From the IMG/VR virus record IMGVR_UViG_2913147268_000003: 21,948 nucleotides of DNA, one strand, 5' to 3'. Position numbers and translations under genes: made by a program. Shown here piece after piece: positions 1,315 through 17,849 of the stretch. Origin of the DNA: a virus (lineage: Duplodnaviria > Heunggongvirae > Uroviricota > Caudoviricetes). The notes under the pieces are model-generated. The model was not told the origin of the DNA. It ran no database searches and saw only the letters and a program-made list of their open reading frames with translations. The stretch's first letter is position 1, and each line of letters starts with the position of its first letter.

Positions 1315-1369
1315 CGATACCTCCAGACGCCCAAGAGCGATACGAGCTTACATATTTCATGATATTAAA

Positions 1370-1606: not shown

Positions 1607-1614
1607 GTATTACC

Positions 1615-1761
1615 TCACACAACACTCAGCCCACGGCAGTGGCAACACACTTCAAACATTCGCTTCACAACTTCACGACAGTAGAAGCCGTCAACATCTC
1701 GCGTCAGGTCATAGCGATTGCCGTAACGCTGGTGGACCCATCGTTCAAATGCTTTATTCAT
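1615..1761 (-). CDS. Hypothetical small Cys-containing protein (48 aa)
   Basis: Below the 60 aa cutoff of the ORF track; found by manual translation (MNKAFERWVHQRYGNRYDLTRDVDGFYCREVVKRMFEVCCHCRGLSVV). Strong AAGGAAG site upstream of the ATG, and the stop sits 8 nt before the xis start. Confidence 0.35.
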   Translation of the reverse strand: MNKAFERWVHQRYGNRYDLTRDVDGFYCREVVKRMFEVCCHCRGLSVV

Positions 1762-1764
1762 TCT

Positions 1765-2007
1765 TTACTTCCTTTTTATGGCTCGTAATTTTTTCAGGTG
1801 CTTTTCCTGCTCAGTGTCCGCGAGAATTTTGCGGTACTCCTGGTGGTCAATATGTTCGAACAGGCAGTTTAACTCACCAATGCGTACCCGCCCGGATCGT
1901 CCGTCCATCCGTCGAAAGAACACTGAGTGCTCAGTGATGCGAGTAATCACCACGGGGTATCCGGCTCTGTCCGTGTATATCTGACCGCGTTGAATCAAAG
2001 CGAACAT
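1765..2007 (-). CDS. Hypothetical phage protein (about 80 aa)
   Basis: ORF 1765..2061 in the track begins with a TTG; the first ATG (MFALIQRGQ...) is at 2005-2007. The stop overlaps the ribosome-binding site of the next gene. Confidence 0.4.
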   Translation of the reverse strand: MFALIQRGQIYTDRAGYPVVITRITEHSVFFRRMDGRSGRVRIGELNCLFEHIDHQEYRKILADTEQEKHLKKLRAIKRK

Positions 2008-2091
2008 GTGGTTATCCCCAGCGGCAAATCGAATACACCACCAGCGCCACCGCCATCGCAATTCCTACCGTTGTTAATGCTTCAGGCCAGG

Positions 2092-2436
2092 TCATCGTAA
2101 AATATCCTCCACGCTTATCAGTCCGTTCCGCTCCAGATAACTCATCGCCTTATCCGGTAATTTGCAGTCTGGCTTCGCTTTCCTCAGTTGCCAGGTTAAC
2201 TGCTTTACCAGCATGGTTAACTCATCGACCAGACGCTGATATCCCACTGGTTTGTATTCATGCAATTTACCGGCTGGCTCTGCTACCAGCGATACCAGTG
2301 CGATTTCCAGAACAGCAATATCCATCTTATATGTGCGGATGATGTCATGGTCGATTGTGCCCGGTATGCACAGTCTCTGTGCTTCAATAGTCTCCTCTGC
2401 GTGAGCTATTAACTGCTCTCTGGTAAAAGTCGTCAT
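2092..2436 (-). CDS. Hypothetical phage protein (114 aa), member of a local paralogous family
   Basis: Its ATG overlaps the stop of the upstream gene. The N-terminal region ([12 protein letters not shown]) resembles the N-termini of ORFs 2433..2600 and 2876..3286. Confidence 0.5.
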
Positions 2437-2600
2437 GCCGTAGCCCCTTCTTGATATTTTTCAAACCAGAACACAACCGGCTCTGCTTCCAGCGATACCA
2501 GCGCAATCCGTGCCAGTTCCATTTGTTCACCACGGGTAAGCCCGTTTTCAAGCGGATTTTTAATGAACAATTCAATACGTTCTTTGGTAATAGTGGTCAT
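2433..2600 (-). CDS. Hypothetical small protein (55 aa), paralog of the N-terminal module of 2876..3286
   Basis: Manual translation [61 protein letters not shown] site upstream; stop overlaps the ATG of 2092..2436. Confidence 0.45.
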
Positions 2601-2610
2601 GTGTTACTCC

Positions 2611-2874
2611 TTAACCCGCAGTGCTTTCAACTGATGAGGGGAACAAAATCTTTTCATCAAACCCTGCATTCATATCATGGACAGCAACACACCAATCCAT
2701 TGACGAACGATTATCAAGAGCCTCCATGATTTCATCCATGCGGCGCAGGTCATACAGGTAAATGCTTTTATCGCCAATGGTGTAAAAACCAATTTTTTTC
2801 GGTGATGGGCAGCGATCAAGAACGTCCTGTAATTCGTTCAACCATGCCCGTTCTTTTTTTGTTAAAGTTGCCAT
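2611..2874 (-). CDS. Hypothetical phage protein (87 aa)
   Basis: ATG at 2872-2874 (MATLTKKERAW...) preceded by AAGGAGAGTGAT; the stop of the upstream gene (2876-2878) lies one nucleotide away. The longer track ORF is an unsupported upstream extension. Confidence 0.5.
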   Translation of the reverse strand: MATLTKKERAWLNELQDVLDRCPSPKKIGFYTIGDKSIYLYDLRRMDEIMEALDNRSSMDWCVAVHDMNAGFDEKILFPSSVESTAG

Positions 2875-2875
2875 A

Positions 2876-3286
2876 TCACTCTCCTTTCCCATGAAGCATA
2901 GCGGCGCGGCAGGCGTTCCAGCCTGTAGCGTATGCAGCCGCTTTGCTGCTGCCTTCAACTGGCGCATCCTGCCAATACATTTCATCCGGCACTACCGGCG
3001 CTGGCAAGGCAGCGTGATAGTAGAGTGGCATAGTTTTGTACAGTGGTTCGCCAGGACTTCCGTCAACCTGATTCCATTCTTCAACCCAGGCATCAACAAC
3101 CGCTTTGCTGGTTGATACATGTTCTTCTGAATCTACATTTTGTCCTGATATACAGAACATAACTGCCTCTGCTTCCAGCGATGCCAGAGCAATTCGTGCC
3201 AGTTCCATTTGTTCGCCACGAGTAAGTCCGTTATCAAGCGGATTTTTAATGAATAATTTGATACGTTCTTTGGTTATAGCGTTCAT
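2876..3286 (-). CDS. Hypothetical phage protein (136 aa)
   Basis: ATG at 3284-3286 (MNAITKERIKLF...) preceded by AAGGAGAGTGAG and separated by one nucleotide from the stop of the Ea22-like gene. The N-terminal 50 aa are paralogous to ORF 2433..2600. Confidence 0.5.
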   Translation of the reverse strand: MNAITKERIKLFIKNPLDNGLTRGEQMELARIALASLEAEAVMFCISGQNVDSEEHVSTSKAVVDAWVEEWNQVDGSPGEPLYKTMPLYYHAALPAPVVPDEMYWQDAPVEGSSKAAAYATGWNACRAAMLHGKGE

Positions 3287-3287
3287 C

Positions 3288-4103
3288 TCACTCTCCTTTG
3301 ATGCGAATGCCAGTAGCGCGGATTGCATCGATGACTTCAGAAACTTTGTATGCCATTACCGTTTGGTAATCATCGTGAAAATCTGTTCGATGAAGCATGC
3401 TGCTACGTTCCGGGAGCGATATTTCCCGAGCATCCAGTTCCTTAACGCGCTCCTCCAGTTCGTAGACCCTGCATTGTTCTCTATCATCAATCAGATATAA
3501 CCCAAGACATTCGCTTTCTACCCAACCGCCAAAATCATGATCGTAACGCTCACATGAAAACTCACCGTCACCGTCCTTTGTTGGAATGGTGTAACTATCT
3601 AATGGGCCACCATATGTCGGCACATTTCCCAATGTTGGATGCTCAATCCACATGAAAAATGCACGTCCGGTTATTGGGCAAATATCTGGCCGCCATTGGT
3701 TACGAACAGCCTTGGTTTCGGATAATTCTTCAGCGTGTTGTTTTACTTCCTCAAGCTCAACTCTCAGCTTCCCAACCGTAAGAGCAATATCCTCGTTCTT
3801 CTGGTCGCGGCGTTTGATGTATTGCTGGTTTCTTTCCAGCTCATCCAGCAGCGCCAAGACGGTAGCCGGATTGGCTGCAGCGATGAATTCAGCATTGGCC
3901 TGCTGTTCCATTTGGAAATCTTCATCGAAACCGCTTTCAGGATGCGCTCCTTCAATTCTGCAAATGGGAATATATCCAGCAGCCTCGCGATGAATTAGCG
4001 CATCATCACCATCAAATCGGCCCTCTCCATATTCGAGCGACCACTCACCACACGTTGCTTTCTCTGCCTTTTCACGCAGTGCCTGATAGTCAATCTTGCT
4101 CAC
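3288..4103 (-). CDS. Ead/Ea22-like protein
   Basis: 271 aa with a GTG start at 4101-4103 preceded by a strong AAGGAGG. The N-terminus (MSKIDYQALREKAEKATCGEW), a central coiled-coil-like stretch and its position between xis and the immunity region match lambdoid Ea22-family proteins as I recall them. Confidence 0.6.
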   Translation of the reverse strand: MSKIDYQALREKAEKATCGEWSLEYGEGRFDGDDALIHREAAGYIPICRIEGAHPESGFDEDFQMEQQANAEFIAAANPATVLALLDELERNQQYIKRRDQKNEDIALTVGKLRVELEEVKQHAEELSETKAVRNQWRPDICPITGRAFFMWIEHPTLGNVPTYGGPLDSYTIPTKDGDGEFSCERYDHDFGGWVESECLGLYLIDDREQCRVYELEERVKELDAREISLPERSSMLHRTDFHDDYQTVMAYKVSEVIDAIRATGIRIKGE

Positions 4104-4404
4104 TGGTTGCCTCCTTTGCCGGGATTTCTAACTTTTGAGTGGTTGTATCAAATTCAAACAACTTAACCACGTCATCAAACAGGACATAATCACCATCAGG
4201 ATCTTCAGTCATATCTGCGCCACAATCCTGACCGCACGAGTCGCAACCATCCATATCAAGCTCGTATCGCTTCAGGTTTGCGATATTTGATAAATTCAGC
4301 GCCAGTACAGCCAGGTCATAAACCTCTTCGGCAGTGACATCGCTGTTCAGTCCCATTTCATGGCGATATATGATTTTTTCTACTCGTTGTTTTGTGATCG
4401 TCAT
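4090..4404 (-). CDS. Hypothetical acidic protein
   Basis: ORF ending just before the Ea22-like start. The start is ambiguous: ATG at 4402-4404 with GGAG upstream, or ATG at 4354-4356 lying one nucleotide after the stop of 4358..4675; the track's 4428 start is a TTG. Confidence 0.4.
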   Translation of the reverse strand: MTITKQRVEKIIYRHEMGLNSDVTAEEVYDLAVLALNLSNIANLKRYELDMDGCDSCGQDCGADMTEDPDGDYVLFDDVVKLFEFDTTTQKLEIPAKEATSEQD

Positions 4405-4675
4405 TTTTCTCTTCACTCCGATATACAAGGATTACCACACCCCCTCTGCTGATTGCGCGAGCTGGATCCCCTGGTTCCATGCCGTCAATTCCGAAGGCTT
4501 CGGAAAACGCATTCATTGCCTTCTGGCGTTCATCCTGCTTACGGCGTTTATTCCATTTTTTCAGGAACAACAGCGACAGCCACCGTCCGCTGCAGAACAC
4601 GATGTAAAAATAACCAAGGAGCGCCAGGCCGACATTCAGGGCCGTTTCTATGGTTAGTTGTGAGTCAGTTGCCAT
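4358..4675 (-). CDS. Hypothetical small membrane protein (105 aa)
   Basis: ATG at 4673-4675 with an AGGTAAGAA site, 5 nt after the stop of the upstream gene. The N-terminus has a hydrophobic helix (LNVGLALLGYFYIVF) followed by a basic stretch. Confidence 0.35.
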   Translation of the reverse strand: MATDSQLTIETALNVGLALLGYFYIVFCSGRWLSLLFLKKWNKRRKQDERQKAMNAFSEAFGIDGMEPGDPARAISRGGVVILVYRSEEKNDDHKTTSRKNHISP

Positions 4676-4913
4676 TTCTTACCTGTTTAAGTAACTGGTT
4701 GAACATAACACTTAGGGGATTGCTGTATCCAAACGGCAGATTGTTTACGCAGTACAGAATCATTTTGTTTTTTTCTCCAGTTCGTACTATTAACCCATTC
4801 CACAATAACCGTGATAATTCATTACTGATAGAAGTTGCGCTTCTTCCAAGTGCGAGGGATATATCTTCTCTACTGCAATCTGGATTTTCCTGGATATACT
4901 CGATAACGGTCAT
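4665..4913 (-). CDS. Small putative winged-helix DNA-binding protein (about 82 aa)
   Basis: ATG at 4911-4913 (MTVIEYIQENPDCSREDISLALGRSATSISNELSRLLWNGLIV...) resembles small winged-helix regulators. The track ORF from 4955 has no ribosome-binding site and overlaps the upstream gene. Confidence 0.45.
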   Translation of the reverse strand: MTVIEYIQENPDCSREDISLALGRSATSISNELSRLLWNGLIVRTGEKNKMILYCVNNLPFGYSNPLSVMFNQLLKQVRNGN

Positions 4914-4923
4914 GTGGTCCCTT

Positions 4924-5505
4924 TTACTTAATATCTGTTTCGGATTGCATGCCATGAGTATTCATTTCGTTAATAATTTCATCCAGAAGGATTTCAAGCC
5001 CTTCTCGACCCATATCTGAAAGAATGAAACCTTTATCAGGGGAAGTAGTGAGCATTTTCTGATAAAGAAACAGCGCTCTTCCCATTCCTTCAGCTTCGCC
5101 GTATTTTTGAATTAAATTCCATTCAATATACTGTTGTAAGGCAAATCGAATGGGGCCGGGATATATCGTCATAAACCCATACATCCCGTTATATACCACG
5201 GCGTGTTCAGTTGTTCCGTGTTCATTCAGGATATCAATTGTGCCGTTCTTGTCTTCTTCTTCGTTGATGAATGTCGTCACATACAACCATCGCCACTGAG
5301 CAACCTTCATCTCAACCGGAAGTTTACCCAGTAATCCTGCTTCGTCGGCTTGCGCCAGACACTGAAGGATACGTAAACCTCGCACATTAGGAGTATCGAA
5401 TTCTCCGGCATCCAGACGACGTATGGCGTCGTGATAATCAATCGTCATACTGCCAGTTCGTATACCATTGGCTGTTGCTTCAGCCTGGAATTCATCGTAT
5501 TGCAT
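4924..5505 (-). CDS. Hypothetical protein (193 aa)
   Basis: ATG at 5503-5505 preceded by GAGGA. No family recognised from sequence. Confidence 0.55.
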   Translation of the reverse strand: MQYDEFQAEATANGIRTGSMTIDYHDAIRRLDAGEFDTPNVRGLRILQCLAQADEAGLLGKLPVEMKVAQWRWLYVTTFINEEEDKNGTIDILNEHGTTEHAVVYNGMYGFMTIYPGPIRFALQQYIEWNLIQKYGEAEGMGRALFLYQKMLTTSPDKGFILSDMGREGLEILLDEIINEMNTHGMQSETDIK

Positions 5506-5510
5506 GATAT

Positions 5511-5693
5511 TTATTCCTCATCTTCATCTGCTGGTGCAATAACGTCATATCCTGCCTTTTCTGCAATAAACAGGAATGTTGAAAGAGTTCCTACAAGTTC
5601 ATCGTCATGAACATGGCGAATGAATATTACTTTCCCGTTTTTGATGGTCAGCAATACTCTGGTTTGTTCGTGTTCTGCTGTTTTCTGATGCAT
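5511..5693 (-). CDS. Hypothetical small protein with acidic C-terminus (60 aa)
   Basis: ATG at 5691-5693 preceded by GGGAGA; its stop overlaps the ribosome-binding site of 4924..5505. Confidence 0.45.
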   Translation of the reverse strand: MHQKTAEHEQTRVLLTIKNGKVIFIRHVHDDELVGTLSTFLFIAEKAGYDVIAPADEDEE

Positions 5694-5887
5694 TATTATC
5701 TCCCGTATGCTTTACGCAGAAATAAGCAGGCAATATGCATGTAATTTTCACCGTATTGTGCAATAAGGCAGGCGGTCTTGTGTGATGCCATATTCTTTAT
5801 AAAAGTCACAATAAAGCCTCCTGTGGATTAAGGTTGTAACAATCCCCGGCGATAAAACCGCAATAAACGTTCAGGGCATATTTGTTG

Positions 5888-6253
5888 TTATTGCGCTAAT
5901 TCTTTTTCGGCAGCAGCTTTTGTATACTCACATGCAAAATTCAGAATTTCGCTGCCGAGTGTTTTCGTTTCGTGATTACTGGACATATGTAATACCTGTG
6001 TTGCATGCAATAAATGATAAACATTTACCGCAAATGAATCAGGCTCCAGGCAAATGCCTTCGTAATTATCTTGCTGTGAGGTTGTTTCTGTCATTGCTCC
6101 TGAAGTGCATACGAGCCTGTTTTTGACAATTCTCTTTTCTCTAATCACTATATCGGCAACATCTATTGCCTTTACAACCTCCGGGAGAAGTTCCGGGTTT
6201 GTATAATCAAAGTCATCAACATGGAGAACAGTTATGTTTTCGAACTTTTTCAT
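5888..6253 (-). CDS. Hypothetical protein (121 aa)
   Basis: ATG at 6251-6253 preceded by GAGGAA. The gene has its own upstream (6254-6381) and downstream (5694-5887) intergenic regions and the sequence looks AT-rich by eye. Confidence 0.5.
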   Translation of the reverse strand: MKKFENITVLHVDDFDYTNPELLPEVVKAIDVADIVIREKRIVKNRLVCTSGAMTETTSQQDNYEGICLEPDSFAVNVYHLLHATQVLHMSSNHETKTLGSEILNFACEYTKAAAEKELAQ

Positions 6254-6381
6254 GGTTTCCTCAGCTGACTTATATGTTCTGCTATATAGCGAGTCTCAGA
6301 AGTGTTTTCATATTAAGACTGTTTCCGCAATGATTGATAAAAATGTTCGCATGTACCTTGAGGGGCGAAGCGGCGATTATG

Positions 6382-6885
6382 TCACCATTGGTATTGGTTC
6401 TTCCGTAGAAGAGCTTCGCGAGATAAGGGGCAAACTTGTTGAGATGCGTCATGGTGTTGCTGCTCCTCACTTTTTGGTTGCTCCGGAGGAGTAACCTCAC
6501 CAGTTAACAGCCACATCGCATCGCAGCCAAGAATATTTGCCAGTGGGATAAGCATACTGATAGTTGGTTCATACTCTCCGCTCTCCCACTGGATGATAAT
6601 TTCTTCATCGAGATCGAGCAGCCTGGCGAGTTCGGCGGTTGTTAAGCCGCAGGCTTCGCGTTGGGTGCGAAGACGGTTGTTGATTGCAGAATTTTTGTTC
6701 TGTAAAAGCATTGCTGACGATAGCTTTCTGGATATGCTATTTGTCATATCCCATGCCAGTCCTGCGCATGACTCTATATCGCTAGAGAGCGTAGCATCAG
6801 GTGTTGCTTTTGCTATTAGTGTAATGAGGCTGCCGAGGTTTTTCAGTTCTTCGAGACAGTCAAGAGTTGTAGCTTTATTGATCAT
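6382..6885 (-). CDS. XRE-family helix-turn-helix protein with unknown N-terminal domain
   Basis: 167 aa, ATG at 6883-6885 with GAGGT upstream. The C-terminal half has a classic XRE HTH (GLTTAELARLLDLDEEIIIQWESGEYEPTISMLIPLANILGCDAMWLLTG). It is the first gene leftward of the operator-like region next to the repressor. Confidence 0.6.
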   Translation of the reverse strand: MINKATTLDCLEELKNLGSLITLIAKATPDATLSSDIESCAGLAWDMTNSISRKLSSAMLLQNKNSAINNRLRTQREACGLTTAELARLLDLDEEIIIQWESGEYEPTISMLIPLANILGCDAMWLLTGEVTPPEQPKSEEQQHHDASQQVCPLSREALLRKNQYQW

Positions 6886-6988
6886 GAGATGATACCTCAG
6901 TTACGAACTTTGTTTTATGGTAACTAAGGTATCAAGGTGTGGCAAGTGATTTTTGATACTTTGGTTTCTTTTTGTGTTTTGTTTCTGG
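6886..6988. promoter_or_regulatory. Candidate left operator/promoter region
   Basis: 103 bp intergenic region between the repressor and the first leftward gene. It contains TTGATACTTTGG (6953-6964), identical to a motif repeated at 7668-7742, and possible leftward -35/-10 hexamers (TTGCCA / TACCAT on the minus strand). Confidence 0.4.
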
Positions 6989-7645
6989 TCAGAAAATATC
7001 CCACCTGGCATCAACCACAACACCTACTATTTCGCAATCATTGTCCATTTCTATGATTGGATATTGTGGATTAAGGGGCTTTAGAAACGCCTTTCCCATG
7101 TCAGAAATATATTTTTTGAATGTTGCTTCATTGGTAGATTTTTTTCTGGCGATGACGTAACACCCTGAAAAAACTTCTTTATCTGGGTTGACAAGGATCG
7201 ACATTCCTTCAGGAAATGTTATTCCTACGGGCGAAGTCATTGAGTCTCCGTGCACTTCCAGCCAGAACCCCCTCTCACCAGCGTATTTTACAGAATGCCT
7301 CCAATTATCCTGATCATACATGTTGTAGTCATCACCAGAAGTTGCGAATAATCCTGCCTGAACCCAGTTAATTACAGGGTAAGAGTGTGCTGTGTCTCTC
7401 TGTGGGCAGCTCTTAACATTATTTTCCCAATGCTTATCTTTTTCATCTCCGTTCTGAAGCCACTGCGGTGAACACCGCAGTGCAGCTGCAACTTTAAAAA
7501 GGGTGTCACCGTTGAAACTTTTTGTAAGGCCTTGCTCGGCTTTACTGATTGCAACTCTGGTGATCCCAGCTTTTTTAGCCAACGCATCTTGTGTTAACCC
7601 AGCTTTTTGCCGTGCGTTGATGAGACGTTCACCTAAAGACTTCAT
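6989..7645 (-). CDS. cI: CI-type phage repressor (N-terminal HTH, C-terminal S24 LexA-like peptidase)
   Basis: ATG at 7643-7645 preceded by GAGGAG. N-terminal HTH (LTQDALAKKAGITRVAISKAEQG), a candidate Ala-Gly autocleavage site (VQAGLF), the S24 Ser motif (GDSM) and a downstream Lys (IARKK). The track ORF from 7720 is a non-supported N-terminal extension. Confidence 0.85.
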   Translation of the reverse strand: MKSLGERLINARQKAGLTQDALAKKAGITRVAISKAEQGLTKSFNGDTLFKVAAALRCSPQWLQNGDEKDKHWENNVKSCPQRDTAHSYPVINWVQAGLFATSGDDYNMYDQDNWRHSVKYAGERGFWLEVHGDSMTSPVGITFPEGMSILVNPDKEVFSGCYVIARKKSTNEATFKKYISDMGKAFLKPLNPQYPIIEMDNDCEIVGVVVDARWDIF

Positions 7646-7760
7646 TTTTCTTCTCCTCTCATGGCTGTTGATACTAAAGTAACAGAATTTCTTGATACTT
7701 TGGATTCCTGTGGTTAACATCGTTGAATAACAAAGTATCTGGTGTGAGACTAAAGAATGA
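7646..7760. promoter_or_regulatory. Candidate right operator/promoter region
   Basis: Three copies of a 12 bp motif: TTGATACTAAAG (7668-7679), TTGATACTTTGG (7692-7703) and an inverted copy CAAAGTATCTGG (7731-7742). A candidate rightward promoter is TTGATA (7692-7697), 17 bp spacer, TAACAT (7715-7720). Confidence 0.5.
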
Positions 7761-7984
7761 CCCTTTATGAAATATTAAAAATTCAATTTAAAACCAATGC
7801 CGCTATTGGTCGCAGGTTCCCAAAGAAAGGAAGGCCTCGTGGCAGTCAAGGTGTTGGAAAGTGGAAAACGCGAGGTGTTCCGGAGGATGTTGCCATTCTT
7901 TGTCATCTGGATCCGAGCATTCCATATACACACCCAAGTCTAGCGAATACAGAAGATGACAAGCCCACAGGAGACCAACAATGA
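7757..7984 (+). CDS. Questionable small basic ORF in the rightward leader (75 aa)
   Basis: The only long ORF between the candidate rightward promoter and the first large rightward gene; its stop overlaps the next ATG (ATGA). Weak ribosome-binding site, low-complexity basic sequence and no recognisable Cro-like HTH. Confidence 0.2.
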   Translation: MTLYEILKIQFKTNAAIGRRFPKKGRPRGSQGVGKWKTRGVPEDVAILCHLDPSIPYTHPSLANTEDDKPTGDQQ

Positions 7985-8688
7985 ACACCGCAATTTTTAA
8001 CGGCAAAGCATCCATGACCAGCGTTGAGATCGCAGAGCTGGTGGGAAGCCGACCAGATAGTGTTAAGAGAACTATTGAAACACTGGCTAAAAAGGGAATC
8101 ATCCAATTTCCACAGACTGTGGAAATTGAGAATAAACAATCACTTGGGCCTCGCCGATTTTCTAGCGCGTATGTATTCGAAGGTGAACGAGGTAAGCGCG
8201 ACAGCATCATTGTCGTCGCACAGCTCTGTCCTGAATTCACAGCTCGCCTGGTAGATCGCTGGCGCGAACTGGAAGAACAGATCCGTAAGCCAATGAGCGA
8301 AATCGAAATGGTTGCCGCGATGGCTCTTGAAGCCGTTCGCCAACAGAAACGGATCACTCAGGTGGAAGAAAAAGTCAGCCACGTTGCTGAAACAGTCGAG
8401 CAAATTAAAAAGGGCACTATTCGTGAGGGCTATGCCGGATATCGCCAACTGAAAGCAAAAACCGGTTTGTCAGATGATAAATGCCGCAATCTGGTGAACG
8501 CCTATCAAATTCCTACAGACACACATGAGTTCATGACGCCGGACGGATTGTTGTCACGTCGCGCAATTGTTGCTGTGGAACCGTTTATGGCTGCTTTTTA
8601 TCGGGTTATGGAGGAAGCAGAACCGCGAGGGACTCGCTGGTATCACCCGAAAATGGGGTTATTTCAGGTTATTGGTTGGCAGCGGTGA
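7981..8688 (+). CDS. Phage regulatory protein, Rha/antirepressor-like N-terminal DNA-binding domain
   Basis: 235 aa with AGGAGA upstream of the ATG. The N-terminus (NGKASMTSVEIAELVGSRPDSVKRTIETLAKKGI) resembles the Rha-family motif; a coiled-coil-like middle region follows. Confidence 0.55.
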   Translation: MNTAIFNGKASMTSVEIAELVGSRPDSVKRTIETLAKKGIIQFPQTVEIENKQSLGPRRFSSAYVFEGERGKRDSIIVVAQLCPEFTARLVDRWRELEEQIRKPMSEIEMVAAMALEAVRQQKRITQVEEKVSHVAETVEQIKKGTIREGYAGYRQLKAKTGLSDDKCRNLVNAYQIPTDTHEFMTPDGLLSRRAIVAVEPFMAAFYRVMEEAEPRGTRWYHPKMGLFQVIGWQR

Positions 8689-8711
8689 AAAAAAGCCGGG
8701 AGTAACCCGGC
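8688..8711. terminator. GC hairpin flanked by an A-tract, intrinsic-terminator-like
   Basis: AAAAAAA then GCCGGG-agtaa-CCCGGC immediately after the stop of 7981..8688. The T-tract is present only on the minus-strand reading, so orientation and function are ambiguous. Confidence 0.3.
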
Positions 8712-8796
8712 TCACTCAACATCAATAACGGGGAGCTGTTTCGCATAAAACGGCTCCGAAACATCCAAGAACAGTTCTAAAGATATCAGCAGCTAT

Positions 8797-9459
8797 ATGA
8801 TCATTTCAAGACCAAATATTGATTCTGCAATTTCGGGACGTTACACTGTCTCCGCACCTTATAAAGCGGGTGCCGGGATTGGCGTCCTGAAATTGTCAAC
8901 GGCGATGTATGACGCGCCAGCGTCTTTTTTATCGTCCGCATTTGCTCACATCCAGATTATGGTGGGCTGGGCGGGGGCACCGAAAGGTGCGCCGGTCTCC
9001 GTTGACGCCGGTTACGCCAACCCCGTCCAGTTCACCACCAGTGAAATTGGCGTTTCCGGTGGTGGAAGTTTTTCACTGTCAACGGAGGCTGCCATCATGG
9101 CTACTGTCCTAACTTCCCCATTCCTAAAAATCGAAGTCGTCAACGGCAAGGCCGTTATTTTCTCCCTGCATGTTGCCTGCCATTTCAAGCGCATGCACCA
9201 GAACATCGTTGACAAAATCGAGTATCTGAACTGCTCACGCGAGTTTTTTACCCGCAATTTCATACCGGGTACTTATCACATCTACGGTGACTCCCTGCGT
9301 GGTTATTACATCACCCTTGATGGTCTGATGATGCTTCAGCTTGGGTTAAGTCTGCGCACAATGCGGTACTACGAGAGCTGTATTGAAGCATTCCATGAGG
9401 CTGAAACCGTCCAGGGTCACTCCGCGTTCCGTCGTAATCAACGGGAGGTGCACCTATGA
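8797..9459 (+). CDS. Rha-family phage regulatory protein (Rha-like domain in the C-terminal half)
   Basis: 220 aa ORF. The C-terminal half (KIEVVNGKAVIFSLHVACHFKRMHQNIVDKIEYL...GYYITLDGLMMLQLGLS) matches the Rha pattern. An internal ATG at 9098 with a GGAGG site is an alternative start. The N-terminal region is paralogous to that of 9456..10307. Confidence 0.6.
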   Translation: MIISRPNIDSAISGRYTVSAPYKAGAGIGVLKLSTAMYDAPASFLSSAFAHIQIMVGWAGAPKGAPVSVDAGYANPVQFTTSEIGVSGGGSFSLSTEAAIMATVLTSPFLKIEVVNGKAVIFSLHVACHFKRMHQNIVDKIEYLNCSREFFTRNFIPGTYHIYGDSLRGYYITLDGLMMLQLGLSLRTMRYYESCIEAFHEAETVQGHSAFRRNQREVHL

Positions 9460-10307
9460 TCCGCCACCAGCATATTGATTCTGCAATTCCGGGACGTTAC
9501 ACTGCTCAGGCACCTTATAAAGCGGGTGCCGGGCGTGGAAACCCGAAATTCAATATAGAGCACAACCGCGCTCATGCGGTTTTTTCGTGTCATGAGCATC
9601 GTTACACCCAAATTATGGTGGGGCGTGCAGGGCCAACTTCGGTTGGGCCGGGTTCTATGTTGACCGGTATTTCCACCCCTGTACGTCTCACCACCTATAT
9701 GGTCGTGGAAAGCCTTGGTGGTGAGTTCATTGAATTCAACATAGGGGCTGTCACCATGACTACTCTCCCAACCCAATCTCACCCTGAAATCACGATTATC
9801 AATGGTCGCGTTGTCACCACATCTCTTGCAGTAGCTAATTACTTTACTAAACGGCATGAGCGGGTTTTAGATAGAATTAGAAACCTCGAATGTTCCGCTG
9901 AATTTACTGAACACAATTTTGTGTTAAGTGAATACACCGACGCATCAGGCCGCAAACTCCCTTGTTACCAAATCACCCGCGACGGTTTTGCGTTTCTTGC
10001 CATGGGCTTCACTGGTAAACGTGCTGCCCAGTTCAAAGAGGCATACATCAACGCCTTTAACCTGATGGAGAAGAGTTTATCAGGTGCCGATGCGTCTGAT
10101 ATGTCAGCTGTCGCACGAAACGCCAGAGGCGTATACCTGCATTTGCGTGAAATCCATCAAATCTGGACAAGCCAGCTTTATCCAATGCTTAAGGCCGTTG
10201 AATCTCCGCTGGCTAGCAAACTGTACGACCGTGTTGGTGATGCTGTTTTTGGCGCTGCACTTGTTGATTCCAGGCTGAATGGTTCTGACAAGGAGGTTCG
10301 CCCATGA
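9456..10307 (+). CDS. Rha-family phage regulatory protein
   Basis: 283 aa with GGGAGGTG upstream; the start overlaps the previous stop. Clear Rha-like domain (EITIINGRVVTTSLAVANYFTKRHERVLDRIRNLE...CYQITRDGFAFLAMGFTGKRAAQFKEAYINAFNLME). Confidence 0.7.
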   Translation: MIRHQHIDSAIPGRYTAQAPYKAGAGRGNPKFNIEHNRAHAVFSCHEHRYTQIMVGRAGPTSVGPGSMLTGISTPVRLTTYMVVESLGGEFIEFNIGAVTMTTLPTQSHPEITIINGRVVTTSLAVANYFTKRHERVLDRIRNLECSAEFTEHNFVLSEYTDASGRKLPCYQITRDGFAFLAMGFTGKRAAQFKEAYINAFNLMEKSLSGADASDMSAVARNARGVYLHLREIHQIWTSQLYPMLKAVESPLASKLYDRVGDAVFGAALVDSRLNGSDKEVRP

Positions 10308-10498
10308 TTAGTTACGAAATCATCATCTCCACTACGGAATACAGAAACGATGTATCAGTTCGCACGGATGTATCTGTCTGGCACCGTCGCTATAAATCCA
10401 GAAAAACAGCGGAACTGAAAGCGGCAGAGATGTGTGAAACCATCTCAATGAAAGGTAGCCCGGTTAAATACGTAACTACGGCGGAGGTGCGTCCATGA
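10304..10498 (+). CDS. Hypothetical small phage protein (64 aa)
   Basis: ATGA overlap with the upstream stop; stop/start overlap with the next gene. Confidence 0.4.
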   Translation: MISYEIIISTTEYRNDVSVRTDVSVWHRRYKSRKTAELKAAEMCETISMKGSPVKYVTTAEVRP

Positions 10499-10719
10499 TC
10501 CGCCACATCGTTAATTCCCTGTATCACCGATACAACCGTTGCCCCCGTGTGGGGCAGTGGTTCGCCACCAGCAACGGTCACGTTCTGCGGGTTTGCCTAG
10601 TCAACGCTGAAAGCCAGAAAGTCGTGTGCGAACTACAGGGGCGTAGCTACACCATCAGTTACCCTCTGGCGGTATTTCTGTCTGGAAAAATGTTTAAGCG
10701 TCTGGGAGGTGTGGCGTGA
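10495..10719 (+). CDS. Hypothetical small phage protein (74 aa)
   Basis: Start context (GCGGAGGTGCGTCCATGATCCGCCAC) is nearly identical to the start context of 9456..10307. Confidence 0.4.
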   Translation: MIRHIVNSLYHRYNRCPRVGQWFATSNGHVLRVCLVNAESQKVVCELQGRSYTISYPLAVFLSGKMFKRLGGVA

Positions 10720-11015
10720 ACTGTTTTCAGTTTGTGTGCGGATGTGCTTTCGATAACCCGATTCAGCGCCTAATTATGTTGCGTGTTTTGATGTCGGGTT
10801 CTTCAGACGGTGAAGGCGAGAGAGTTATTGATCATCAGGTGCTTGCTGATTTCTGCTGTTGTTCTAAGCAAGCGATATTCAGGGAAACCCTGGCACTGGA
10901 AAGAGCTGGTTATCTTCATATCCGAAAAATTGCAACGCTTACTATTGATGCAAAAGCCAGACTACAACCTGCGCGTGGCTACACAATTCTCATGCCGCGG
11001 AAGGAGGTTGTATGA
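10716..11015 (+). CDS. Hypothetical protein with possible HTH (99 aa)
   Basis: GTG start overlapping the upstream stop. Lies immediately upstream of the replication initiator; the segment SKQAIFRETLALERAGYL looks HTH-like. Confidence 0.4.
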   Translation: MNCFQFVCGCAFDNPIQRLIMLRVLMSGSSDGEGERVIDHQVLADFCCCSKQAIFRETLALERAGYLHIRKIATLTIDAKARLQPARGYTILMPRKEVV

Positions 11016-11998
11016 GCCGTTACGCCCCCACACCGGAAGTTATGGCTATTGGTCAAATTAATATTTCCGGCAATGTTACACCTGCGAACTGGTGGAAATA
11101 TATTCGACTACCCAGTGGGCGTCCGGATGCGACGGCTATCGCTCTGCTTTCAGAGATCGTTTACTGGTACCGCCCGACAGAGGTCAGGGATGAGCACACC
11201 GGAGCGTTGCTGGGATATCGCAAGCGTTTTCAGGGCGACAAACTGCAAAGAAGCTACCAGGCGTTTGCTGAGCAGTTTGGTTTCGGGAAAAGGGAAACCG
11301 CAGATGCGCTGAAGCGTCTGCGCGATGCAGGGTTTATTACTCTGGATTTACGCACGGTGGAAATGCTCGATGGGGTGAAATGCAGCAATATTTTGTTTGT
11401 CGGGATCAACCCACAGGCAATTGCGGCCATCACCACACCTTCTTCTGTTTCGCCAGAAAGTAACAGCAATAATGCAATCAGCGATACAGCTATTACGTTA
11501 AAACGGAACACCCCCCGACGTCATAACGGAACAGGGGATACGCCGAATGTTGATACAAATACAGAGATTACTACAGAGATTACAACGGAGACTAAAAACA
11601 CTATTGATGCATCCGCTGACGCGTCTGCGCGTTCTGCCCGACAGGAATATTCACCGGAATTTGAACAGGCCTGGCAGGAATATCCCAAACGTGCTGGTGG
11701 CAATTCCAAGTCAGCAGCCTTCAAAGCCTGGAAAGCCCGTATCAGGGAGGGAATAAAACCGGAGACCATGCTTGATGGCGTGAAGCGGTATGCCGCCTGG
11801 GTACGTGCTACAGGAAATACCGGCACACAGTTCGTGAAGCAGGCTGCGACGTTCTTTGGACCCGATCGTCACTTCGAAGATTACTGGCAACAGCCAGCCG
11901 CTCACGGAGGTGGGCGACAGCGACAGGTCGATGTCCTGGCTGGCCTGGGAGCCATGTCTGACAAATTCGGTAAATCCAGTAACAAATTGACATTCTGA
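11012..11998 (+). CDS. Phage replication initiation protein (O-like / replisome organiser)
   Basis: 328 aa with AAGGAGG upstream. It has an N-terminal DNA-binding-like domain, a low-complexity linker whose DNA carries tandem iterons, and a C-terminal domain, and it sits directly upstream of the loader and helicase genes. Confidence 0.65.
   Translation: MSRYAPTPEVMAIGQINISGNVTPANWWKYIRLPSGRPDATAIALLSEIVYWYRPTEVRDEHTGALLGYRKRFQGDKLQRSYQAFAEQFGFGKRETADALKRLRDAGFITLDLRTVEMLDGVKCSNILFVGINPQAIAAITTPSSVSPESNSNNAISDTAITLKRNTPRRHNGTGDTPNVDTNTEITTEITTETKNTIDASADASARSARQEYSPEFEQAWQEYPKRAGGNSKSAAFKAWKARIREGIKPETMLDGVKRYAAWVRATGNTGTQFVKQAATFFGPDRHFEDYWQQPAAHGGGRQRQVDVLAGLGAMSDKFGKSSNKLTF
11561..11596. 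repeat. Tandem 12 bp iteron-like repeats inside the replication initiator gene
   Basis: ACAGAGATTACT / ACAGAGATTACA / ACGGAGACTAAA in direct tandem, encoding TEITTEITTETK in the linker. Confidence 0.5.
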
Positions 11999-12008
11999 GG
12001 TGACAGCG

Positions 12009-12908
12009 ATGATGACGATTGACCAACGTGAGAAACAAACAAGACTACAGGCGCGAATGGATGAGTTACGGGCAGAAATGGATGAGTTACGGGCAGAGAT
12101 TGCATTTGCTCAGAAGGGCGAAAAGCCATGGCCTTATCGTTCCTGCCTGATGCGTGAAGGTCGCGGATATTGCGAAAAACACGGTAAATATCGTACGCAT
12201 ATACTGGTGTGGATCGATCGTAATGGCGAGGACAGAGAAAAAATTTCATGCTGCCCTGACTGCTTGATCGCTGAGGCCAGTGATTTGACCATGGAACTGT
12301 CGTCCCTCAAGGCGGAAGAACTGACTGATAACGCCGGAATTGCTCTGCGTTTTCGGGACTGCGAGTTTGATAATTATCTGGAGGTTAATCCTGACGCAGC
12401 CAGAAATCTTGCGGCCTGTCGCCGCTATGCGGAGAACTGGCCAGATATGCTGGAGAACGGTACCAGTCTTGTTATGACCGGCAGTTGCGGTACCGGGAAA
12501 AATCATCTGGCGGTATCAATGGCAAAACACATCATCCGTAACTATCTGGCCAGTGTGGAGATCACCGACGTGATGCGCCTTACCCGGGCTGTGAAAAACT
12601 GCTGGCGGAATGACAGTGAAAAAACAGCGGATGACGTCATTGAGCATTATGCGTCACTGGATTTGCTGATTGTCGACGAAGTCGGCGTTCAGTTTGGCAG
12701 TGCGGCTGAAATGGCCATTTTGCAGGAAATTATCAATGCCCGGTATGAGGGTATTTTGCCAACTATCCTGATCAGCAACCTTTCACCGGAAGAATTGTGG
12801 GCGTTCATCAGTCCCCGGATTGCCGACAGGATCACCGATGGCGGGCGCAACTGGTTGTCGTTTAACTGGCCCAGCTACCGTTCTCGTATCGGAGGTGTTG
12901 CCGCATGA
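12009..12908 (+). CDS. DnaC-like helicase loader (IstB-type AAA+ ATPase)
   Basis: ATG at 12009 with GAGGTGA upstream. Walker A (GSCGTGKNHLA) and Walker B (LLIVDEVG) motifs. The N-terminal extension has a Cys cluster (C-x9-C ... CCPDC) and a tandem repeat. Confidence 0.8.
   Translation: MMTIDQREKQTRLQARMDELRAEMDELRAEIAFAQKGEKPWPYRSCLMREGRGYCEKHGKYRTHILVWIDRNGEDREKISCCPDCLIAEASDLTMELSSLKAEELTDNAGIALRFRDCEFDNYLEVNPDAARNLAACRRYAENWPDMLENGTSLVMTGSCGTGKNHLAVSMAKHIIRNYLASVEITDVMRLTRAVKNCWRNDSEKTADDVIEHYASLDLLIVDEVGVQFGSAAEMAILQEIINARYEGILPTILISNLSPEELWAFISPRIADRITDGGRNWLSFNWPSYRSRIGGVAA
12057..12098. repeat. 21 bp tandem duplication within the DnaC-like gene
   Basis: ATGGATGAGTTACGGGCAGAA followed by ATGGATGAGTTACGGGCAGAG, encoding MDELRAE twice in frame. 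Confidence 0.85.
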
Positions 12909-14305: not shown

Positions 14306-14316
14306 ACAACCAGACA

Positions 14317-14559
14317 ATGACTTTTACCCCTGAGCAATTACGTAAACAGGCACAGGAAATGTTGCGGCAGGCGGAACAACTGGAAAAAACAGGTGTAACA
14401 AAAGATGCCATTCGTCGGGATATGGTGCCAGCGCTCAGGGAACTGATGCAGGCAAAACACCGTGCACAAAAAGCAGTGGATGAGCTGGTGGATTGTGTGG
14501 CAGAGCTGGAAACCAGAGTTGGTAAGTTTGAAAAACTGGTGCAGGAGGTACTGCGCTGA
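14317..14559 (+). CDS. Hypothetical coiled-coil phage protein (about 80 aa)
   Basis: First ATG (MTFTPEQLRKQ...) after the helicase stop; the track's 14302 start is a TTG. Its stop overlaps the next ATG. Confidence 0.4.
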   Translation: MTFTPEQLRKQAQEMLRQAEQLEKTGVTKDAIRRDMVPALRELMQAKHRAQKAVDELVDCVAELETRVGKFEKLVQEVLR

Positions 14560-14927
14560 TGCGTGATATGTACGAAGTTTTAGATCGTTGGGGGGCCTGG
14601 GCTGCAGCAGATAACAGTGGTGTGGACTGGCAGCCGATAGCAGCAGGCTTCAAGGGGCTTTTACCACACGGTAAAAAGTCACGTCTCCAGTGTGATGATG
14701 ACGAAGGTATCATGATAGACGGTTGTGTGGCTCGGTTGCGAAAGTATAAACCCGAAGAGTATGAGTTGATCATTGCTCACTTTGTTATTGGTATCTCATT
14801 ACGCGCTATTGCTAAAAAACGGAAATGTTCAGATGGAACAATACGGAAAGAGATGCAAACAGCAATGGGGTTTATTGATGGCTGCTTGTCATTTTTCATT
14901 TACTACAATGACTTAAGTTCTATGTAA
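14559..14927 (+). CDS. Putative late-gene antitermination protein Q-like
   Basis: 122 aa with GGAGGT upstream. The pattern DRWGAWAA...IAAGFKGLLP...RLQCDDDEG...CVARLRKY...AHFVIGISLRAIAKKRKCSDGTIRK matches my recollection of the small prophage Q-like antiterminator family. The last 20 codons are AT-rich and atypical. Confidence 0.45.
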   Translation: MRDMYEVLDRWGAWAAADNSGVDWQPIAAGFKGLLPHGKKSRLQCDDDEGIMIDGCVARLRKYKPEEYELIIAHFVIGISLRAIAKKRKCSDGTIRKEMQTAMGFIDGCLSFFIYYNDLSSM

Positions 14928-14990
14928 AATCGTTCTACTTTCCCAACTTTTATGTGTATATAATACCAGGATAAAGTAACGGAGAATCTT

Positions 14991-16031
14991 GTGAACATTC
15001 AGGCAGTAGACATTTTTTGTGGTGCGGGGGGCTTAACTTTTGGGCTAAAAAAAGCCGGGATTGAGGTTTCTCATGGTATTGATATTGATGAATCCTGCCG
15101 TTTTGCTATTGAGAGCAATAATCCTTTAACGCAGTTCATTAATCAGTCAGTTACAGAACTGCAATCCTGCGATGTGTCTGCTATGTTCAAGGAAGGAAAT
15201 ATTAGATTGCTTGCTGGATGTGCTCCTTGCCAACCGTTTTCCAAGTATCGTAATCCAAATAGCCGTAAAGACGATACAAAGTGGCGTTTGTTATATGAGT
15301 TTCAAAGGCTTGTAAGTGATGTCATGCCAGAGCTTGTGACGATGGAGAATGTTCCTCAACTTAGAAACCATAAGGTTTTTGAAGGGTTTGTTAGTGCATT
15401 AAAGACTCTTGGATATCATTTGTGGTACGACGTTGTAAGATGTTCTGAGTATGGCTTACCTCAAAATAGACGTAGATTAATTCTAATTGGTTCCCAATTG
15501 GGGCCGATCAGCCTTGATCAAAAAAAAGTTAGCCGTAAAGTTACTGTTAAGGATGCTATTGGTAGGTTGCCAAAAGTAGGGGCAGGTGAGAAGCTGGAAA
15601 GCGATCCCTTGCATCGTTCGCCTAAATTGATGGATATCAATCTTAAACGAATCATGCATTCTTTACCTGGTGGTACGTGGGATGACTGGCCTGAAGAAAT
15701 TAGAGCAGACTGTCATAAAAAGAATTCAGGTGCTACCTATAAAAGCGTTTATGGACGGATGGTTTGGGACGATACTAGCCCTACGATAACTACCCAGTGT
15801 TATGGATATGGAAATGGACGATTTGGCCATCCTGAGCAAAATCGCGCCATAACTTTGCGTGAAGCTGCGATTTTGCAATCCTTTCCAATGGATTATAAAT
15901 TCCTTGACAAGGAGACGCCTTTTTCATTCCAAAAATTGGGGACAATGATTGGAAATGCTGTTCCCCCTATAATTGGTCAGATAATAGGGGAAACATTTAT
16001 CAGACATGTTGAGGGGATAAATACCCGTTAG
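14991..16031 (+). CDS. DNA (cytosine-5)-methyltransferase
   Basis: 346 aa, GTG start with GGAGAA upstream. Canonical C5-MTase motifs: motif I (DIFCGAGG), motif IV (GCAPCQPFS), motif VI (TMENVPQL), motif VIII (QNRRRLILIG) and motif X (GNAVPP). Confidence 0.9.
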   Translation: MNIQAVDIFCGAGGLTFGLKKAGIEVSHGIDIDESCRFAIESNNPLTQFINQSVTELQSCDVSAMFKEGNIRLLAGCAPCQPFSKYRNPNSRKDDTKWRLLYEFQRLVSDVMPELVTMENVPQLRNHKVFEGFVSALKTLGYHLWYDVVRCSEYGLPQNRRRLILIGSQLGPISLDQKKVSRKVTVKDAIGRLPKVGAGEKLESDPLHRSPKLMDINLKRIMHSLPGGTWDDWPEEIRADCHKKNSGATYKSVYGRMVWDDTSPTITTQCYGYGNGRFGHPEQNRAITLREAAILQSFPMDYKFLDKETPFSFQKLGTMIGNAVPPIIGQIIGETFIRHVEGINTR

Positions 16032-16689
16032 AGGTAATATAATTTTCTGTTGAGTTGATTAATAAACGCAAATATAGATCAATTCTTTCTGACCTCGATT
16101 TGACTTCTTCTAAAGGGTCTATTTGACCTTTTTTAGAAAAGCTGGTACTTCCATGTGCCAGCTCATTTCTGATATCTTTAAGTAAATCTAAGTCAACACC
16201 ATTTCTACACTCTGGTGAGTTTGCAACAGTTATTCCGTAAGCTTGTGTTATTTTGTGCAATACAGACTTGCAAACATTACCATTGAATTCTTTACGTATG
16301 TTTAATGAGGCTGAAATGATCCTTTTAGATATATCGGAACCAATTTTTTGATAAAGAGATTTTCCCGATTCATTATCTGAAATGATACGGTGCAAGATAT
16401 TTACTTGGAATTTCTCCCTGAGTGATGCGTAATTTACTTCATTATCTTGCAAATGGTCATAAATTGACTCAATGCATCCTCTGGCAGTGTTTTCAACCTG
16501 ATTGTACAGCATCATGTGCACGGATGATTTTAAAATGTTAACCCTAAGGGTATTTGATTCTATTTCATCTTTATGCGTTTGCTGATCTAACTGCTGAGTC
16601 TGAGCCTCTAAAGATGACGCAAGAGAAAGCAATTCCATAATATCTCTTGCTCTTTCTTCGTATTCATCTCTTAAATCAATCAAACTCAT
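16000..16689 (-). CDS. HEPN-domain protein (putative RNase effector)
   Basis: 229 aa with its ATG 2 nt after the stop of the DUF262 gene. C-terminal R-x4-H motif (IRNELAHG, residues 174-179) typical of HEPN, preceded by a coiled-coil-like N-terminus. Confidence 0.55.
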   Translation of the reverse strand: MSLIDLRDEYEERARDIMELLSLASSLEAQTQQLDQQTHKDEIESNTLRVNILKSSVHMMLYNQVENTARGCIESIYDHLQDNEVNYASLREKFQVNILHRIISDNESGKSLYQKIGSDISKRIISASLNIRKEFNGNVCKSVLHKITQAYGITVANSPECRNGVDLDLLKDIRNELAHGSTSFSKKGQIDPLEEVKSRSERIDLYLRLLINSTENYITSNGYLSPQHV

Positions 16690-16691
16690 AG

Positions 16692-17849
16692 TTACATTCC
16701 TAATAATTTATCTTTGACATAAAATATTCTGTTTTTGAGTTGGCTGGTGTTGTTGGCACTATCAGCAGTAACTATGGTTTCAAATTCCTCCCCAAACAGC
16801 CAGTCTCCTACAGGAATAACCGGAGCCTGTAGATGTGGATTGGCTTTTAAGGCAAGAGCAGTTCCCACTGCTATGGCTTCGTATCTAGCACGGGGGGTGG
16901 TTTTGCTTGTTGGTGTCTTTTTAAACCCCATAGGGAAATGAGCATCTACAAAAGCAAGCATGCTTTCAAAATCATGTTTAAATTTGTCTACATCTTGTTG
17001 TGTGACCCTTTCGGCCTGAACATTAAGATAATTGTCAATAAAAGGAGCGACATAACCCTTATAATTTTCTAAATCATTTAAGTATGCAAAAAATCTCAAA
17101 ACTAACTCACGATGATCGCCATTCGAACGTTTCCGGTCTGATAATGGAGCTAGACTAGCGAAAAGTGGATTTGTTGAGCAAGGAGTCACAACATCCCTAT
17201 AGAAAATTGAAGTGGCCGCATCTGAACCATGTCTAACCTCCATCGCTTCCAGTCTCTTAACACCTGAATTTATTCTTTCGAATAAATCTCTTCTATGTTG
17301 CTCCTCAACATCACCTTTCAATTCAATAAATCTTAGTGATGCCCTTAAAAATCGCCTCTGGCGGCTAGCCAAAAGATCTGAAAATTTGAAGCCCTCTAAA
17401 CTTTTGAGTTCTTTTAAGTCTTTCAATTCAAACTGATTGTTCCAAAAGTAGTAAATTGAGCGAATCCTTTGTGAACCGTCAATAATTTCTACACGACCAT
17501 CCAACTCAGGATCTTCATTAAATACGTCGGAGATGTAGAGGTACGGGATTGGAAAATCTAATAATATACTTTCGATGAATCGAGAGGCTGTTTTGATATC
17601 CCATTTGTAATCGCGTTGATAATCAGGAATAAAAAGTTCGTTTTTGTCAGTTTCAAGATTATTGCCATACTTTTGTACAATTAATTCAACGGTCCATTCA
17701 CGTACGTTGTATCCAATATTTCTCTGAGCAAGCCTAATCTCGTTGTCGGCAGAAGTGACCAAGGCTGCAATTTCAGCTTTTTTTCTATTTTTCGCGTTTT
17801 CATCTTGAATCTGAGCAAGCTCTTCTTTGAGTTCTTTGAGTGTGGTCAT
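16692..17849 (-). CDS. DUF262 (ParB-like nuclease superfamily) domain protein
   Basis: 385 aa with AAGGAA upstream. N-terminal DUF262 signature motifs (IPDYQRDYKWD and IIDGSQRIRSI); the C-terminal roughly 180 aa are unassigned. Confidence 0.7.
   Translation of the reverse strand: MTTLKELKEELAQIQDENAKNRKKAEIAALVTSADNEIRLAQRNIGYNVREWTVELIVQKYGNNLETDKNELFIPDYQRDYKWDIKTASRFIESILLDFPIPYLYISDVFNEDPELDGRVEIIDGSQRIRSIYYFWNNQFELKDLKELKSLEGFKFSDLLASRQRRFLRASLRFIELKGDVEEQHRRDLFERINSGVKRLEAMEVRHGSDAATSIFYRDVVTPCSTNPLFASLAPLSDRKRSNGDHRELVLRFFAYLNDLENYKGYVAPFIDNYLNVQAERVTQQDVDKFKHDFESMLAFVDAHFPMGFKKTPTSKTTPRARYEAIAVGTALALKANPHLQAPVIPVGDWLFGEEFETIVTADSANNTSQLKNRIFYVKDKLLGM

Follow-up and report, generated by a model that had tools for sequence, protein, structure and literature searches.

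The region at positions 6886-7984 very probably represents a lambda-type bistable switch, with the 75-aa ORF at 7757..7984 as its Cro. Judged from sequence comparison and structure prediction, this ORF is the phage's Cro, a small, all-alpha helix-turn-helix (HTH) protein of the P22/N15 Cro lineage. What is new is small, namely a Cro subfamily that has diverged and gone unannotated, its HTH turn carrying an unusual insertion, plus an operator consensus; the name Cro12 is already in the literature, although the databases say hypothetical. The main value is corrective, as an annotation gap in an ordinary lambda-type switch is filled and the lambda paradigm stays unchallenged: the 75-aa gene, 'hypothetical' or of 'unknown function' in RefSeq, GenBank and PHROGs, can now be annotated cro. 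The reality of the gene, its homology and fold, its synteny, and the statistics and conservation of the operators were established in the present analysis. The genes concerned are as follows.

6382..6885, minus strand: XRE-type HTH protein, 167 aa, first gene of the PL operon
6989..7645, minus strand: cI repressor, 218 aa, with an N-terminal HTH and a C-terminal S24 self-cleaving peptidase domain
7757..7984, plus strand: cro as assigned here, 75 aa, diverged all-alpha (P22/N15-type) Cro with a five-residue basic insertion, K24-R28
7981..8688, plus strand: Rha/Roi-like DNA-binding protein, second gene of the PR operon, outside the immunity cassette

The prophage and its immunity cassette

The window, i.e., the whole stretch of DNA analysed (21,948 nucleotides), is the early region of a lambdoid, phiP27-like, non-Stx prophage of E. 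coli, and its positions 1-18407 are identical to a prophage of E. coli Ecol_AZ146, which adjoins a DUF72 gene and yecN. The immunity region (6860-7990) was covered to at least 80% in 195 of the 5,426 complete E. coli genomes, the 75-aa gene was found in 197 of them, ST131 included, and the region is 100% identical among the ST131 genomes listed. Its nearest phage relatives are phiP27 (93% identity), then several Stx1a/Stx2a-converting phages (84-86%); phiP27 (L11/L12) and the Stx1a/Stx2a LC5678xx phages carry an orthologous cI, orthologous operators and an orthologous 75-aa gene at 84-93% nucleotide identity. Unlike the window, phiP27 harbors an extra leftward gene, L13, between L12 and the Rha-like gene, and L12 and its orthologues are hypothetical in database records.

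Compared with PhiR49_2, the swapped cassette spans 6673-7967 (breakpoint at 6672), and homology resumes at 7968. The cassette holds cI, both operator regions and the 75-aa ORF, with the Rha-like gene outside, so that the 75-aa ORF is a member of the immunity cassette and the Rha-like gene is not.

The cI repressor exhibits two Pfam domains, HTH_3 at residues 10-63 (E 2e-14) and Peptidase_S24 at residues 90-211 (E 3e-22), belongs to phrog_4 (transcriptional repressor) in PHROGs, and begins with MKSLGERL, a start common to its homologues. The motifs QAG, GDSM and FKK were read in its translation; by domains and motifs, the protein has the HTH, the S24 domain, the cleavage site and the Ser/Lys dyad of a lambda-type CI. 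An earlier note on this DNA, made from the sequence alone, had described an immunity region with a CI-type repressor between repeated operators, and this was borne out, three sites being predicted on each side of cI.

The 75-aa ORF: coding evidence, homology and fold

The same note had seen no recognisable Cro and a leader of about 250 nt before the first rightward gene, and had stated that this would be overturned if a conserved protein resembling Cro proved to be translated there. As far as computation goes, such a protein is what was found, and the reading without Cro and with a long leader fails for that reason: the 75-aa ORF is conserved, shows the marks of purifying selection and lies divergently beside an HTH+S24 repressor across all genera and immunity types examined. 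Along its entire length it matches phrog_4749 (E 6.9e-49), and 42 homologues were obtained from at least nine enterobacterial genera, the source names including Klebsiella/Raoultella, Yersinia, Kosakonia, Citrobacter, Photorhabdus, Providencia, Salmonella and Xenorhabdus. The alignment covers 35 of them, which share 61-95% identity with the 75-aa protein; within residues 1-59, 23 columns do not vary, and the tail is variable. Between the ORF and its Stx-phage orthologues, synonymous and non-synonymous substitutions stand at 11:4 and 12:3, and codon position 3 takes 12-13 of 16-17 substitutions; on these alignments the ORF appears to be under purifying selection.

The earlier suggestion was that 7757-7984 is an untranslated leader, a small RNA or a structured element in which the 75-aa ORF is fortuitous. 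In its favor, the ORF is basic, without a Pfam or NCBIfam match and hypothetical in all public records searched; however, its divergence is mostly synonymous and dominated by third positions, conservation is at the protein level across genera, and the AF2 fold is confident. Moreover, Rfam gave no match at E<=1, and the RNA 7727-7984 folds no better than its shuffles (z = +0.59, with 143 of 200 shuffles folding at least as well). An untranslated leader is thus refuted as far as computation allows, and we regard it as scarcely credible. Of the description of the ORF as basic and low-complexity, only the basic character was confirmed, the pI being 9.5 with 11 K/R among the first 40 residues; the AF2 model is a confidently folded helical domain (pLDDT 87.8, with the HTH helices above 90), against low complexity.

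The 75-aa ORF occupies the position of cro, as the first rightward early gene across an operator-bearing gap from cI. The same arrangement was observed in Klebsiella, Photorhabdus and Providencia, where the rightward genes always begin with its homologue, which diverges from an HTH_3+Peptidase_S24 gene over a gap of 104-159 bp, and where the genes downstream of the homologue differ. In E. coli prophages that are siblings of this one but differ in immunity type, this slot holds an 87-99 aa gene of the YdaS_toxin/P22_Cro clan (Pfam), flanked in most loci examined by an S24 repressor on one side and the same Rha-like gene of 235 aa on the other. The PhiR49_2 Cro and the CP-933P YdaS are of this kind: they share with the 75-aa ORF the slot, the start/stop overlap with the Rha-like gene and, by transitive homology, the Pfam clan, and they differ from it in immunity type, in a direct PF15943 match, in a length of 87-99 aa and in the absence of the turn insertion.

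The predicted structure is a small, helical, repressor-like HTH fold, structurally closest to the Cro proteins of N15, Xfaso1 and P22, and its HTH helices superpose on Cro proteins at 2.0-3.2 A; the best PDB match in Foldseek is also a Cro, the Foldseek E-values being weak (0.75 and 4.4). No Cro, HTH or YdaS model was matched directly, as PF14549, PF15943 and PF09048 in Pfam did not match the protein even at E<=10, NCBIfam gave no match, and the family profile retrieved no Cro among the PDB sequences, only Nup358 (E 0.75). When the family profile was run against 1.84 billion representatives, ten more distant clusters were recovered (E 1.6e-11 to 4e-4), all of which are without five residues of the HTH turn. 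Seven of these ten insertion-free clusters match PF14549 P22_Cro, one of them exceeding the gathering score (31.2 vs 30.2 bits). In hhalign, the 75-aa family aligns with the insertion-free relatives at 99.7%, and the latter with P22 Cro at 97% (E 1e-10). The link to Cro was drawn through these intermediates because the direct hhalign comparison of the family with the single P22 Cro sequence gives only an insignificant 2.7% probability, in the expected register. The 75-aa ORF is in this way connected to Cro by transitive homology. On two IMG/VR contigs, the insertion-free relatives show the same divergent layout beside an HTH_3+Peptidase_S24 gene; one such relative as a query against genome contigs returned only a spurious partial match, and another against viral contigs a single weak match.

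The 75-aa protein has in common with the P22, N15 and Xfaso1 Cro proteins its place as the first PR gene, divergent from cI, a length of about 60-75 aa, and the motif pattern FxTxxAIAxxFG..(A)VSxWK..(I/V)PE, together with the transitive profile homology. It differs from them in having no direct Pfam match, in the conserved basic K24-R28 and in an invariant C-terminal LCH(L)D..IPY(T)H, which is common only to its nearer relatives. Gene position, transitive homology and structure, which support the assignment here as three independent lines, are the grounds on which orthology of Cro proteins has been accepted (Hall, Roberts & Cordes 2019, PMC6649833). The phiP27 L12 orthologue is listed as 'P27, Cro12' by Smith et al. 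2012, whose degenerate primers encode the two ends of phiP27 L12, MTLYEI and GKQSEV (PMC3430580).

The residues K24-R28 form a five-residue insertion relative to the insertion-free relatives and P22 Cro, so that the canonical short HTH turn is absent; AF2 models them as a loop with a beta-bridge, and the basic stretch around them carries the invariant P22, G25 and R28. The direct family searches likely failed because this insertion splits the HTH that the models expect. It also departs from canonical HTH geometry, for which reason DNA binding by the 75-aa protein is not guaranteed. One alternative is that the ORF descends from a Cro, lost a working HTH through the insertion and acts through protein-protein contact, e.g., as an anti-repressor against CI. 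This agrees with the placement of K24-R28 where canonical HTH motifs tolerate little change, and with a putative recognition helix, QGVGKW, that is rich in glycine and does not change even with different operators, as in Providencia. On the other hand, the inserted loop is strongly basic and keeps P22, G25 and R28 as a DNA-contacting element would, the HTH helices are modelled with high confidence and superpose on Cro proteins, and the insertion-free relatives hold the same genomic slot, so that we consider a disabled HTH very improbable. For a DNA-binding Cro, the loop may make an additional contact, either with the backbone or with the A/T-rich spacer of 4 bp in the operator; that it amounts to a non-canonical mode of DNA recognition is possible, if rather unlikely. 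If true, the turn-insertion Cro would be a third structural variant of the protein family, which already serves as a model for the evolution of folds and interfaces; for those who study how Cro proteins evolved, the insertion is a curiosity of modest weight.

Operators, early promoters and the proposed switch

Six operator sites and two early promoters were predicted in the intergenic regions flanking cI.

6891..6904: left operator site 1, GATACCTCAGTTAC, an exact match to TGATACNNNNGTWAC and 8/10 to the palindrome
6920..6933: left operator site 2, GTAACTAAGGTATC, an exact TGATACNNNNGTWAC match on the minus strand
6955..6968: left operator site 3, GATACTTTGGTTTC, 9/10 to the palindrome, with 1 mismatch to the longer pattern
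7670..7683: right operator site nearest cI (OR3-like), GATACTAAAGTAAC, an exact match to TGATACNNNNGTWAC, 9/10
7694..7707: middle right operator site (OR2-like), GATACTTTGGATTC, a match to the palindrome
7726..7739: distal right operator site (OR1-like), AATAACAAAGTATC, 8/10, the inverted copy of the earlier note
6945-6917, minus strand: predicted PL, with -35 TTGCCA (6945-6940), a 17-nt spacer and -10 TACCAT (6922-6917)
7692-7720, plus strand: predicted PR, with -35 TTGATA (7692-7697), a 17-nt spacer and -10 TAACAT (7715-7720)

The operators had previously been read as copies of a 12 bp motif. Its four copies were placed right, with exact TTGATACTTTGG at 6953-6964 and 7692-7703 and variants (9/12 matches) at 7668-7679 and, inverted, at 7730-7741; two left sites (6891-6904 and 6920-6933) had been missed. 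As a unit, the 12-mer was dropped in favor of a palindromic model, since at <=3 mismatches it is not enriched across the window (26 found vs 23 expected). The comparison with relatives points to a 14-bp pseudo-palindrome, GATAC-N4-GTATC (5+4+5), with the half-site GATAC, as the real unit. At 8/10 or better this unit has 13 matches in the 21.9-kb window, six of which fall inside the 214 bp that make up the intergenic regions on either side of cI, against an expectation of about 0.1; likewise, all three exact matches to TGATACNNNNGTWAC fall in these two regions. In each of the six sites, one half reads GATAC perfectly and the other is degenerate.

On the left, site 1 overlaps the Shine-Dalgarno of the leftward gene, downstream of the PL start predicted near 6910, and is identical in phiP27 and the Stx1/Stx2 phages; site 2 sits between the predicted PL -35 and -10; and site 3, which is the copy at 6953 of the earlier note, lies just upstream of the PL -35 and is conserved in relatives. 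On the right, the OR3-like site is a block conserved among E. coli, Klebsiella and Photorhabdus; the OR2-like site, 24 bp away from it, overlaps the predicted PR -35; and the OR1-like site, 32 bp from the middle one, covers the expected PR start, and in one Stx2 phage a perfect palindrome, GATACTTAAGTATC, stands at this position. The right intergenic region, aligned among E. coli, Klebsiella and Photorhabdus, is invariant at the half-sites and the PR hexamers and variable in the spacers, with the 24/32-bp spacing of the sites kept identical, and TTGATACTTTGG is unchanged in all six aligned loci. In Providencia, the half-site is GAAAC in place of GATAC, and the recognition-helix region of CI differs as well. 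The sites thus flank cI, exceed chance, are conserved in relatives and overlap the predicted early promoters, as a tripartite operator should. No description of the consensus GATAC-N4-GTATC was found in the literature within reach.

Both promoters come from a consensus scan, in which each scores 9/12. In related left intergenic sequences, the PL -35 was read as TTGCCA, TTGCAC or TTGACA, and among the six aligned loci the PR -35 is invariant and the -10 retains TAnnnT. With PR starting at about 7727 as predicted and the ORF at 7757, the leader would be only about 30 nt long, and the leader of some 250 nt proposed earlier does not stand, given the conserved 75-aa gene that opens there. For the cI maintenance promoter PRM, the consensus scan found no minus-strand promoter between 7646 and 7756; TAGTAT, picked by eye as its -10, has a poor -35.

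From this layout we infer the promoters, the binding events and the order of site filling, as follows. In the lysogen, CI dimers would fill the six operators and occlude the -35 and start of PR as well as the spacer and -10 of PL. RecA-stimulated (SOS) self-cleavage of CI would let PR fire, Cro would be made first, and it would bind the operators that CI uses, presumably starting with the one closest to cI, shutting off cI maintenance transcription and later damping PR and PL. The Rha/Roi-like gene is translationally coupled to cro through the ATGA at 7981-7984, where the stop of the 75-aa ORF overlaps the start of the Rha-like gene, and the same PR operon would continue through the Rha/Roi-like gene and the Ash-Rha genes to the replication genes.

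As in the OR and OL of lambda and P22, three pseudo-palindromes with a consensus half and a degenerate half are present on each side of cI, and they overlap the -35, the -10 and the start of the divergent early promoters predicted here. Two adjacent right sites are 24 bp apart from centre to centre, which is lambda-like, being close to the lambda OR1-OR2 spacing. Unlike lambda and P22, the window shows a 14-bp core with the half-site GATAC and a third right site 32 bp away; the N/nut, CII and CIII partners are not recognisable in it, and PRM was not found by the consensus scan. Three GATAC-N4-GTATC sites per side define an immunity group, and the consensus could help predict superinfection immunity among Stx-related prophages.

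The flanking early genes

The gene at 7981..8688 matches Phage_pRha at 25.6 bits, below the cut-off, belongs to phrog_63, and is called 'Rha family transcriptional regulator' by PGAP. It had been suggested that the Rha-like gene, taken as the first rightward gene, assumes the roles of Cro. This is unsupported: the gene need not replace Cro because it is second in the operon, and because the loci examined in Klebsiella, Photorhabdus and Providencia have this cI/cro cassette without it.

A wider alternative would leave the ORF as a real HTH protein with another role, e.g., as an activator of the CII kind or as an accessory regulator, the repression falling to the Rha/Roi-like or the leftward HTH protein. 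To our knowledge, all characterised lambdoid phages have cro nearest to the promoter in the PR operon, and this is the position of the 75-aa ORF. It is also the ORF, and not the Rha gene, that travels with cI and the operators across genera, and it is Cro proteins specifically that match the ORF best in structure and in profile comparisons. On the side of another role, three Rha-domain genes follow the 75-aa ORF, the N-terminal type of the leftward HTH protein is shared with the immunity cassette, and homologues of CII, CIII and N are not recognisable here, nor in P27, which was reported without N, CII and CIII (Smith et al. 2012, PMC3430580). Since these homologues are not recognisable, the regulatory wiring is probably not fully lambda-like. 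On balance we judge a role other than Cro improbable, and the ORF is taken as Cro.

Leftward, the gene at 6382..6885 had been read as an HTH protein with the HTH in its C-terminal half, rather than as an N-like antiterminator. Both readings were confirmed, as Pfam HTH_3 lies at residues 72-126 of 167 (E 1e-10), making it an XRE HTH protein. In PHROGs, it matches phrog_4739 over the full length and phrog_4836 ('CII-like regulator') over residues 49-138. Its relatives keep the HTH, swap the N-terminal ~65 aa, and many of them add a second HTH; the three N-terminal types examined adjoin three different repressor/Cro arrangements. The N-terminal domain may be an immunity-specific partner because it is swapped together with cI, cro and the operators, and that it is such a partner of the switch is conceivable and on the unlikely side; adjacency alone may explain the linkage between N-terminal type and immunity. 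No similarity was found between the N-terminus and the next gene (5888..6253), and the AF2 model of the protein (pLDDT 64, pTM 0.35), which is uncertain, places two long N-terminal helices at residues 7-27 and 31-78.

Exchange of the immunity cassette

Sequence comparison with PhiR49_2, a sibling E. coli phage or prophage of another immunity type with a YdaS-type Cro, revealed 99% homology with the window as far as 6672 and a resumption from 7968, which delimits the following feature:

6673-7967, exchanged immunity cassette (breakpoints at 6672 and 7968, from the homology with PhiR49_2)

As the homology stops and resumes at these two positions, the cassette takes in cI, cro and both operator regions, and by the same breakpoints it also takes in the ~70 codons for the N-terminal part of the leftward HTH protein (gene 6382..6885, minus strand), whose conserved HTH segment starts at the crossover position. 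Three N-terminal types of this gene were examined, and these lie beside three different repressor/Cro arrangements.

Possible signals on either side of cI

No maintenance promoter (PRM) for cI was recognised by consensus in window 7660-7710 on the minus strand; the best candidate -10 is TAGTAT (+ strand 7671-7676), located inside the cI-proximal operator and accompanied by a poor -35. Directly past the cI stop, a GC-rich hairpin that leads into a T-run was observed in the related loci of Klebsiella, Photorhabdus and Providencia (L006, L009 and L011, respectively; GCCGGCATAGCCGGC in L006), which looks like an intrinsic terminator, whereas the window and phiP27 carry no hairpin and T-run at that position.

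Genes to the right of cro

Three Rha-domain genes follow one another in window 7981-10307, the second and third being tandem paralogues:

7981..8688, Rha/Roi-like gene
8797..9459, Ash domain (N-terminal) plus Rha domain
9456..10307, Ash domain (N-terminal) plus Rha domain

In the window, cro and the Rha-like gene share a 4-nt overlap, whereas in phiP27 the cro orthologue (L12) and the Rha-like gene (L14) are separated by an additional leftward hypothetical gene of 672 nt (L13, L001 4500-5171).

Genes past Q

Three cargo genes lie immediately past the Q antiterminator gene (14559..14927; whole region 14559-17849), and judged by the annotation of the identical RefSeq prophage only, they look like defence-type cargo:

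14991..16031, plus strand, DNA cytosine methyltransferase
16000..16689, minus strand, HEPN-like nuclease
16692..17849, minus strand, DUF262 protein

Past 18407 (18408 onward), the window departs from the otherwise identical prophage of the E. coli genome Ecol_AZ146, for which the annotation shows fragmented pseudogenes (DNA methyltransferase, DUF6645) in the corresponding region.
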